Positions 6,906 through 8,867 of a stretch of DNA of 35,982 nt are shown piece after piece (within the stretch, counting starts at the first letter, position 1; each line of letters opens with the position of its first letter). A program made the translations under genes and the position numbers. Source of the stretch: Candidatus Micrarchaeota archaeon (GTDB lineage Archaea; Micrarchaeota; Micrarchaeia; Anstonellales; JAGGVH01); the NCBI GenBank assembly GCA_964404695.1, contig CAYOKY010000001.1, positions 1 through 35,982 of the forward strand, read 5' to 3'. Under the pieces are notes generated by a model. It worked only from the letters and a program-made list of their open reading frames with translations. It did not search any database and was not told the origin of the DNA.

Positions 6906-8816
6906 ATGAAATCAGAGAGTGATGATGTGTTAAGAGACTTTGAAAAAATAGTTAAAGAAATAATCCCTGATGACTGTGGGTTTTCTAAAATTGAAGCTGA
7001 AGGCTTAAGCATAGTGATTTACGTTGATGATATCAAAACATTTTATGAGACAAATCAATTGATCCGTAAAATTGCTGGCGCATTGAAAAAGCAGATTAAG
7101 ATACGTAGTACTCCTTCATTTAGAAAAGATCCTGAAGAAACAAAACAGTTTATTCAGAAAGTTGTTCCTGAAGATGCAGGCGTGAATGGAATTTATTTTA
7201 ATCCGCTCTTTGGGGAAGTAAATGTTGAAGCAATGAAGCCAGGTCTTGTTATTGGTAAAGGCGGTGAAACTTTAAAAAAAATAATTAAAAGTACTGGGTG
7301 GGTTGTTAATGTTTTAAGGATACCTACTATGGAATCTTCTACAATAACTGGTGTCCGGAAAAGTTTGCTTAAGGAAGCAGATGAACGTAAAAAGTTTTTA
7401 AATAAACTTGGAAGCAGGATTTTAAGGTCTTATGAGGAACCCTCTACTTGGGTTAAAGTGTCTGCGCTTGGTGGTGCCAGGGAAGTTGGCCGTTCATGTT
7501 TCTTTGTTGAAACTTCAAACAGTAAAATTTTATTGGACTGTGGTATTAATCCTGACACTTCGGATAAACATCGTTCATTTCCTGCACTGAATGAAATGGG
7601 TTGTTCTTTATCTGAGCTGGATGCAGTTGTATTGAGCCATGCACATCTTGATCATTCTGGATTCATACCTTATTTGTATGCTTATGGTTATGAAGGGCCT
7701 TTATATTGTACTCATCCAACCAGGGATTTATCTGTCATGTTGCAGATGGATTATCTTAATTTGGTAAATAAGTCAAATTCGGTAGTGCCTTACAGTGTTA
7801 AGGATATTCATAACGAGCTTTTGCACACTATTCCTTTGGATTTTGGTGAGGTAGTTGATATTACTCCTGAAATTAAATTGACATTATATAATGCCGGGCA
7901 CATTCTTGGGAGTGCTATAACTCATTTGCATATCAATAACGGTCTGCATAATTTGGTTTATACTGGCGATTTGAAGTTTGGGTTTACACAATTGTTTGAT
8001 CCTGCACATGTTCAATTTCCTAGGGCTGAAACATTAATCATGGAATCAACTTACGGTGGCAAAGGGGATATTATGCCTAACCGTAAAGAAACAGAACAAA
8101 TGATGATGGATGTTGTCAAGAAAACCATTGAACGTGGCGGTAAAGTTTTAGTGCCAGTTTTTGCAGTCGGTCGTTCACAGGAAATAATGTTAGTTTTTGA
8201 AAGGTATATGAGGGAAATGGGGCTTGAAGTTCCCGTTTACTTAGACGGTATGATAAGAGAAGCATCAGCTATTCATACTGCTTATCCTGAATATTTAAAA
8301 CATAATGTTAGAAACAAAATATTATCTGGTCGCAGTCCATTTGAATCAGAAATATTTGAAACTGTTAAAAATAATCGTCAGGAAATTATTGATGGTGATC
8401 CCTGTGTAATCCTTGCAACAGCAGGTATGATGTCGGGCGGTCCAGTTTTGGAGTATTTCAAACAATTGGCATCTGATGAAAAGAATTCAATCGTTTTTGT
8501 AGGTTACCAGTCGCCGTTGTCTCTAGGTCGCAAGATTCAAAGAGGTTCATTAAATGAAGTACCCTTGCCAACTCCTAACGGCAAAACTGATATTGTTAAT
8601 GTTAACATGGAGATATTTACTGTTGACGGGTTTTCAGGCCATTCTGACAGAAGACAGTTGTTGGCTTACGTAAAGAACCTTGAACCTAAACCTAAACGGG
8701 TTATTCTTTGTCATGGTGAAGATAAAAAGGTTAATAATCTTGCATCAACAATTAATAAAATGTTTAAGATTAAAACCGACTCGCCAATGGTGCTGGACAC
8801 TTTGAGGTTGAAATAA
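6906..8816 (+). CDS. fttA: aCPSF1/FttA: KH-domain beta-CASP metallo-beta-lactamase ribonuclease (transcription termination factor)
   Basis: N-terminal KH-like region (GLVIGKGGETLKKI), then GGAREVGRSC, HAHLDHSG, beta-CASP region and C-terminal HGE. The 636-aa size matches the archaeal CPSF1 group. Confidence 0.95.
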   Translation: MKSESDDVLRDFEKIVKEIIPDDCGFSKIEAEGLSIVIYVDDIKTFYETNQLIRKIAGALKKQIKIRSTPSFRKDPEETKQFIQKVVPEDAGVNGIYFNPLFGEVNVEAMKPGLVIGKGGETLKKIIKSTGWVVNVLRIPTMESSTITGVRKSLLKEADERKKFLNKLGSRILRSYEEPSTWVKVSALGGAREVGRSCFFVETSNSKILLDCGINPDTSDKHRSFPALNEMGCSLSELDAVVLSHAHLDHSGFIPYLYAYGYEGPLYCTHPTRDLSVMLQMDYLNLVNKSNSVVPYSVKDIHNELLHTIPLDFGEVVDITPEIKLTLYNAGHILGSAITHLHINNGLHNLVYTGDLKFGFTQLFDPAHVQFPRAETLIMESTYGGKGDIMPNRKETEQMMMDVVKKTIERGGKVLVPVFAVGRSQEIMLVFERYMREMGLEVPVYLDGMIREASAIHTAYPEYLKHNVRNKILSGRSPFESEIFETVKNNRQEIIDGDPCVILATAGMMSGGPVLEYFKQLASDEKNSIVFVGYQSPLSLGRKIQRGSLNEVPLPTPNGKTDIVNVNMEIFTVDGFSGHSDRRQLLAYVKNLEPKPKRVILCHGEDKKVNNLASTINKMFKIKTDSPMVLDTLRLK

Positions 8817-8867
8817 ATTGACACTTTGAGGTTGAGATAGATGGGCATTTTGAGGTTGAAATAAATT
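8796..8867 (+). repeat. 24-bp tandem repeat x3 that echoes the aCPSF1 3' end including its stop codon
   Basis: 8796-8819 GACACTTTGAGGTTGAAATAAATT; 8820-8843 GACACTTTGAGGTTGAGATAGATG; 8844-8867 GGCATTTTGAGGTTGAAATAAATT. Confidence 0.9.

Follow-up and report, generated by a model that had tools for sequence, protein, structure and literature searches.

A tandem array across the stop codon of the aCPSF1 gene in a Micrarchaeota archaeon: a probably neutral duplication in a repeat-rich genome

Introduction

Several types of tandem sequence have been described in prokaryotes that may serve as points of comparison for repeats found at gene boundaries. Variable-number tandem repeats (VNTRs, also known as minisatellites) originate by slipped-strand mispairing and are defined by copy-number polymorphism, whereas the mycobacterial interspersed repetitive units (MIRUs) are tandem units located between the genes of operons, whose ends overlap the upstream stop codon and which form a dispersed family for which small coupled open reading frames (ORFs) have been proposed. 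Tandem (or back-up) stop codons are known from 3' untranslated regions, in which single in-frame stops are statistically over-represented. In Borgs, tandem repeats (at least three perfect units, at least 50 nt) make up 0.62% of the genome, compared with at most 0.01% in Methanoperedens; these repeats are perfect and enriched in A, their units are divisible by three within ORFs and in 14-38% of intergenic cases, and replication slippage has been discussed as the mechanism (Schoelmerich et al., PLoS Biol 2023, PMC9879509). Here, we report an analysis of contig CAYOKY010000001.1 (assembly GCA_964404695.1) of a Candidatus Micrarchaeota archaeon, the whole 35,982 bp of which are referred to as the window, and in which the 3' end of the gene encoding aCPSF1/FttA, the archaeal termination and 3'-end cleavage factor, is repeated head to tail immediately downstream. 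This array is very probably a selectively neutral tandem duplication, with replication slippage, or a comparable realignment out of register, as its most likely source.

The aCPSF1 array shares a number of features with VNTRs, including a short unit (in the range of 10-100 bp), head-to-tail arrangement, a locus-private and lineage-specific sequence, and a position of the kind tolerated in non-coding DNA or in frame within proteins. Like MIRUs, the tandem units lie between co-directional genes and overlap the upstream stop, but MIRUs share related units across loci, whereas the arrays of this genome differ from one another in their units, each of which duplicates the gene end at its own site. 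The locus also resembles a back-up stop arrangement in carrying extra in-frame stops a few codons after the real aCPSF1 stop; however, these stops were duplicated along with the block that contains them, and no excess in frame was observed.

Sequence data and analysis

The window is one whole contig of a metagenome-assembled genome (MAG) of 1.15 Mb, which consists of 210 contigs with 34% GC and an estimated completeness of 84%. Tandem arrays were identified by running Tandem Repeats Finder (TRF) on all contigs and were counted, without redundancy, when the period was at least 8 and the score at least 50. Genes were predicted with a longest-ORF caller (at least 60 aa, open-ended ORFs allowed). 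Copies of a gene end beyond its stop codon are called echoes below, and an array was considered stop-straddling if it included at least 6 nt of the coding sequence and at least one full unit past the stop. The registration of echoed stops was corrected for indels before retention was scored. As a null model of placement, the 175 arrays that were not intragenic were put uniformly in the permitted space in 300 simulations. Orthologues of aCPSF1 were located in 30 related genomes, and about 20 of these loci were readable in the right orientation. Array density was determined with the same pipeline in samples of six relatives, of 160-316 kb each for five of them and of 40 kb for G011.

Structure of the array at the 3' end of aCPSF1

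TRF placed the array at 8796-8869, with a 24-bp period, 3.1 copies, 82% matches, 0% indels and a score of 113, and the sequence agreed exactly with the preliminary description of three 24-bp units at 8796-8867, each with an in-frame stop (TAA, TAG and TAA; Table 1). When the whole genome was shuffled three times with a second-order Markov model, the highest array score was 79, none reaching 100, which shows that the array is real, non-random and far beyond chance. Most of copy 1 corresponds to the last 18 coding nucleotides and the TAA of aCPSF1, and the 24-nt block is completed by three downstream nucleotides. Compared with copy 1, copy 2 has three substitutions (A>G, a second A>G that gives its TAG, and T>G) and copy 3 has two (A>G and C>T), which leaves them 88-92% identical to it; four of the five differences are transitions.

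The unit appears to be private to this locus: no second occurrence was found in the genome even when up to five mismatches were permitted, and membership in a dispersed repeat family was thus rejected. We also considered whether the spacer might be echo-derived throughout, with a degenerate fourth copy at 8868-8892, and rejected this because 3806 of 5000 shuffles aligned equally well. Separately, the substitutions in copies 2 and 3 have created an ATG at 8841, with GAGGT upstream at a Shine-Dalgarno-like distance, and this ATG opens a mini-ORF of seven codons (MGILRLK-stop, to 8864), probably by chance.

Table 1. Features of the aCPSF1 locus and other tandem arrays of the window
Feature	Positions	Strand	Description
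Perfect private array upstream of aCPSF1	6601-6650		12 bp x 4.2
aCPSF1/FttA, 636 aa	6906-8816	+	TIGR03675, 870.9 bits; residues 11-635 on profile positions 3-630/631
Copy 1 (source unit)	8796-8819	+	GACACTTTGAGGTTGAAATAAATT; DTLRLK-stop-I, TAA at 8814-8816, then ATT
Copy 2, non-coding	8820-8843	+	GACACTTTGAGGTTGAGATAGATG; DTLRLR-stop-M, TAG at 8838-8840
Copy 3, non-coding	8844-8867	+	GGCATTTTGAGGTTGAAATAAATT; GILRLK-stop-I, TAA at 8862-8864
Partial copy GA, 2 nt	8868-8869	+	directly after copy 3
Spacer remainder, unrepeated	8868-8903	+	GGTGA (8895-8899), Shine-Dalgarno-like, 4 nt before the proS ATG
proS (proline-tRNA ligase), downstream, co-directional	8904-10310	+	TIGR00408, 456.6 bits
kae1 start-spanning array	10368-10401	+	perfect, 11 bp x 3.1, ATGGCGAGACA; Kae1 by TIGR03722
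In-frame arrays in the Lys-rich C-terminal tail of ORF 16505-17161	16868-17151		three arrays (15, 24 and 18 bp)
ksgA stop-spanning array	24232-24301	+	18 bp x 3.9 (IDLQD-stop), TRF
Perfect private array downstream of the ksgA echo	24340-24380		13 bp x 3.2

It might be supposed that the repeat was made by the assembler and is absent from the DNA of the organism, since the genome is a fragmented short-read MAG and 17 of its 330 arrays are found no more than 30 nt from the end of a contig, where about 3.6 would be expected, an over-representation indicating that repeats disturb the assembly. However, the three copies differ at five positions, whereas duplicates made by an assembler would be identical, and repeats normally collapse or break in assembly and do not create diverged copies. 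In addition, the 74-nt array is situated deep inside a 36-kb contig and would presumably fit within one typical short read. The probability of an artefact is therefore close to nil, and what the excess at contig ends probably reflects is that the assembly under-reports tandem repeats, which break contigs.

Orthologous loci and a possible origin of the array

The aCPSF1 protein ends in ...P(M/L)xLDxxRL(K/R)-stop, or a near variant of it, in all of the approximately 20 readable orthologous loci, implying that copy 1 is the native C-terminus and that the other two copies are non-coding. No repeat followed the stop at any of these loci, including those of two genomes of the same genus (G001 and G002); hence, the comparison of orthologous loci that had been proposed earlier identified the array as lineage-specific. 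In G001, an ATG-started frame begins 9 nt past the aCPSF1 stop and is a candidate proS, because its N-terminus (...F.EW...) looks by eye like that of ProS in the window, while in G002 about 80 nt without a repeat separate the aCPSF1 stop from the next ATG. The aCPSF1-proS spacer of the window measures 87 nt with the array and 39 nt if copies 2 and 3 are removed. Among 5.8 billion proteins, the best match to the aCPSF1 of the window showed 71-72% identity, and the protein groups with others that are named Candidatus Micrarchaeota or Micrarchaeia by their sources.

These data are consistent with the following sequence of events. Out-of-register realignment during replication, or an equivalent process, would have copied the 24-nt block, which is bounded by GA microhomology, and a second event or a further slip would have produced three copies; the 2-nt GA partial copy at the 3' edge of the array is compatible with such microhomology-mediated slippage. 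As copy 1 keeps the full reading frame and the stop, the protein would have remained untouched and the event would have been neutral. Copies 2 and 3 would then have become untranslated spacer DNA, later gaining the five point substitutions, and the spacer between aCPSF1 and proS would have been lengthened from 39 to 87 nt, presumably with continued co-transcription of proS. At the genome scale, the same process may let private short repeats accumulate wherever they are harmless, that is, in spacers, across stops, and in frame in tolerant regions of proteins. Among the readings offered in the preliminary description, slippage duplication of gene ends is the one supported by the head-to-tail copies, by the private unit, by the lack of a repeat at orthologous loci and by the statistics for the whole genome given below.

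Tandem arrays at gene boundaries throughout the genome

A total of 330 tandem arrays were detected in the genome, compared with 9-14 in Markov-shuffled genomes, and they were found on 70 of the 81 contigs of at least 5 kb. Intergenic arrays (n = 139) had a density of 1.19 per kb of non-coding DNA and a distribution of periods modulo 3 (0:1:2) of 50:43:46, while intragenic arrays (n = 155) had a density of 0.15 per kb of coding DNA and a distribution of 133:6:16. The remaining classes discussed here are stop-straddling (n = 22; 9:5:8) and start-straddling arrays (n = 5; 1:2:2). Tandem arrays occupy 7.3% of the non-coding DNA and occur in 139 of the 598 spacers of at least 30 nt, and perfect or almost perfect copies were seen in only 29 of the 139 intergenic arrays. 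Within genes, a mild enrichment was observed in the first and last tenths (15 and 19 arrays, respectively, versus about 10 per decile).

The periods of the 22 stop-straddling arrays showed no bias toward multiples of three, either against an expectation of one third (binomial P = 0.29) or against intergenic arrays (Fisher P = 0.64), so that duplications crossing a stop behave like purely intergenic ones. Arrays at stops were not significantly more frequent than under uniform placement (22 observed versus 15.6±3.8 expected, P = 0.08), and an enrichment of echoes at stop codons was accordingly rejected. In contrast to this, only 5 arrays were found at starts versus 17.4±3.9 expected, a number as low as this being reached in 0 of 300 simulations. 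Purifying selection, or in part the mis-calling of starts, accounts for this under-representation of start-spanning arrays.

Similar echoes are carried by about twenty functionally unrelated genes, each with its own private unit. Besides KsgA, they encode class V FBPase, Sua5/YrdC, a DRG-type GTPase, a NosD-like beta-helix protein, an asparagine-synthase/diphthamide-synthase fusion, a NUDIX hydrolase, YdjM, a glycosyltransferase, a SWEET/PQ-loop protein, an ArsR regulator, an Lhr helicase fragment, an EF-Tu domain 2 protein, a TPR protein, Elp3 and several hypothetical proteins. The presence of aCPSF1 in this list is thus a coincidence, and the special link to the gene of a termination factor, which had seemed worth remarking, finds no support. 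The locus is an ordinary short tandem duplication that starts inside a gene end, one of about twenty such cases in the genome, and even two gene-end echoes within a single 36-kb window are unremarkable (Poisson P = 0.15).

Are the echoed stops maintained by selection?

Selection might have kept the in-frame TAG of copy 2 and TAA of copy 3 as back-up stops to catch ribosomes reading through the aCPSF1 stop, given that all three copies contain an in-frame stop and that the stop positions have changed only once, from TAA to TAG, with a comparable TAA>TGA in the ksgA array. The observation in the preliminary description that every copy keeps its stop was true, but the weight placed on this retention was overstated: when the unit measures 24 nt and the later copies still match copy 1 at 88-92% of their positions, an in-frame stop in every copy is almost automatic. 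Such stops would be a by-product of the unit length, which happens to be 24, and of the copies being still young. The TAA-to-TAG change is also unremarkable. Adjacent copies of indel-free arrays differed by 114 transitions and 91 transversions, A<>G accounting for 59 of the 117 changes involving A, and under this spectrum about one in three single changes in TAA gives TAG or TGA, i.e., another stop.

Genome-wide, a stop was kept at 10 of 11 echo positions of in-frame arrays (8 unchanged, 2 stop-to-stop and 1 lost) and at 16 of 21 positions of out-of-frame arrays (15 unchanged, 1 stop-to-stop and 5 lost), which is not a significant difference (Fisher P = 0.64); the single loss in frame is a TGA>TGG in an array on contig C24. 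Over the 22 stop-straddling arrays, there was no excess of in-frame stops or in-frame periods relative to the out-of-frame control. In the preliminary description, random phase and a lack of stop retention had been named as the result of such a scan that would speak against its reading, and the scan indeed gave random phase and no special retention of stops. Moreover, at 34% GC an in-frame stop is expected about every 14 codons by a composition estimate, which means that the duplication would add little protection. A back-up stop function for copies 2 and 3 is therefore exceedingly improbable, and the array instead illustrates how a tandem duplication with a unit divisible by three can mimic stop conservation.

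Some observations nevertheless weigh against neutrality at this locus or limit the strength with which it can be argued. Among changed echo triplets, 2 of 3 were still stops in in-frame arrays versus 1 of 6 in out-of-frame arrays, a difference in the direction expected of back-up stops, although not significant (Fisher P = 0.23). Neutrality was deduced from the statistics of 22 arrays, with which a weak effect or weak selection at the aCPSF1 locus itself stays compatible, and the gene calls came from a simple longest-ORF caller applied to a fragmented MAG that is 84% complete. Finally, no close strain was found by exact-protein look-up or by exact-DNA scans of metagenome and genome collections.

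Regulatory roles in the aCPSF1-proS spacer

Repeats located exactly at the 3' end of a gene for a 3'-end cleavage factor could act as an RNA 3'-end or termination signal, or as an autoregulatory site whose units are bound or cleaved, possibly by aCPSF1/FttA itself, and each unit does include a short U-tract (UUU or UUUU). Termination in archaea is usually signalled by a run of at least five T, however, and in the 87-nt spacer such runs reach a length of four at most. In folding predictions, 8780-8910 did not stand out (-25.2 kcal/mol, z = -1.5), with 15 of 200 shuffles folding as well, and no Rfam match was obtained at the gathering threshold in the whole window; a structured RNA was rejected on these grounds. 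The absence of the repeat from all readable orthologous loci and the different private units of the other echo-bearing genes also speak against an RNA signal, a suggestion of the preliminary description that we now consider highly improbable.

The second regulatory possibility concerns the downstream gene, for which the units might represent a reiterated promoter with TATA-like (AAATAAAT) elements or a set of transcription-factor sites. The array ends 36 nt before the proS ATG, an A/T-rich stretch, AAATAAATT, recurs in every unit, and direct repeats would be in keeping with a common operator architecture. However, the units stem from the coding sequence of the upstream gene and not from a shared motif, and the short distance of 9 nt between the aCPSF1 stop and the next frame in G001 suggests that proS, provided that it is what this frame encodes, is co-transcribed and has no promoter of its own. 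Array density was 1.91 per kb in convergent, 1.65 per kb in co-directional and 1.31 per kb in divergent spacers; arrays are thus neither specific to 3'-3' spacers nor enriched in the divergent, promoter-bearing ones, and the similar densities across spacer types argue against a terminator- or promoter-specific role. No test supported a function in proS regulation, which appears very unlikely.

Other arrays in the window

The report that the same architecture occurs after ksgA was confirmed, TRF detecting a stop-spanning array there in which the echoed stop has changed from TAA to TGA. A different boundary is affected in kae1, whose perfect array spans the start codon; the period of this array is not a multiple of three, and it adds two out-of-frame ATGs just upstream of the real start at 10390. 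The spacer before aCPSF1 and the one after the ksgA echo each contain a perfect private array, and since such perfect copies imply very recent events, the duplication process seems to be ongoing. In addition, three in-frame arrays form the Lys-rich C-terminal tail of an ORF in the middle part of the window (Table 1).

Repeat density in relatives and comparison with Borgs

Array density was 0.287 per kb in this genome (G000) but 0.078 and 0.063 per kb in the sampled parts of the two congeners, G001 (GC 36%) and G002 (GC 34%), respectively, a difference of about fourfold at similar GC content. The sampled parts of other families of the order had 0.04-0.16 arrays per kb. The coding fraction was 0.90 in this genome versus 0.92-0.96 in the relatives, with 0.94 in the congeners. 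Gene-end echoes are not unique to this genome and recur elsewhere in the order: in G020, a distant relative, five stop-straddling arrays were present in 160 kb, one of which consists of a 14-bp unit repeated 9.4 times with 98% identity. An extra or unusual family-B DNA polymerase was considered as a cause of the repeats, and the result was uninformative, one full-length match to the family-B polymerase domain being present in this genome as well as in each of G001, G007 and G020, and two short fragments in one frame in G002. A literature search on tandem repeats in DPANN or Micrarchaeota, or on repeats across stop codons, found nothing relevant.

The abundance of private head-to-tail repeats in one genome, and their near absence from close relatives, is reminiscent of Borgs, and so is the distribution of unit lengths, as 133 of 155 intragenic and 50 of 139 intergenic arrays (36%) had periods divisible by three. 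Under the definition used for Borgs, perfect repeats formed 15 regions and 0.078% of this genome, and none were present in the sampled parts of G001 and G002. On the other hand, the arrays described here are mostly imperfect, as exemplified by the 82% matches of the aCPSF1 array, and a Borg-like bias of A over T is absent (A 0.402 and T 0.422 in the arrays of co-directional spacers). Furthermore, the host is the chromosome of a cellular DPANN archaeon, whereas Borgs are extrachromosomal elements.

Implications

With respect to the aCPSF1 gene itself, these results remove an attractive idea, namely that the gene for the archaeal termination factor carries a self-referential 3'-end signal or fail-safe stops. 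The view of the echo as raw material for C-terminal extension is possible as a matter of evolutionary potential only.

At the level of the genome, a species-specific and unusually active process of tandem duplication may be remodelling gene boundaries, although we advance this only tentatively and think it less likely than not to hold as a whole. Blocks duplicated across stops would build spacers, those across starts would be purged, and in-frame blocks near gene ends would feed low-complexity tails such as the Lys-rich one mentioned above, which would make the process a chromosomal, imperfect DPANN counterpart of Borg repeats. This genome documents that short tandem duplications on a DPANN chromosome can be so frequent that they shape the lengths of spacers and the boundaries of genes. 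The asymmetry between stops, across which duplications are tolerated, and starts, across which they are depleted, represents a small natural experiment on neutral duplications at gene boundaries, and a lineage has been identified in which the cause of elevated repeat formation may be sought.

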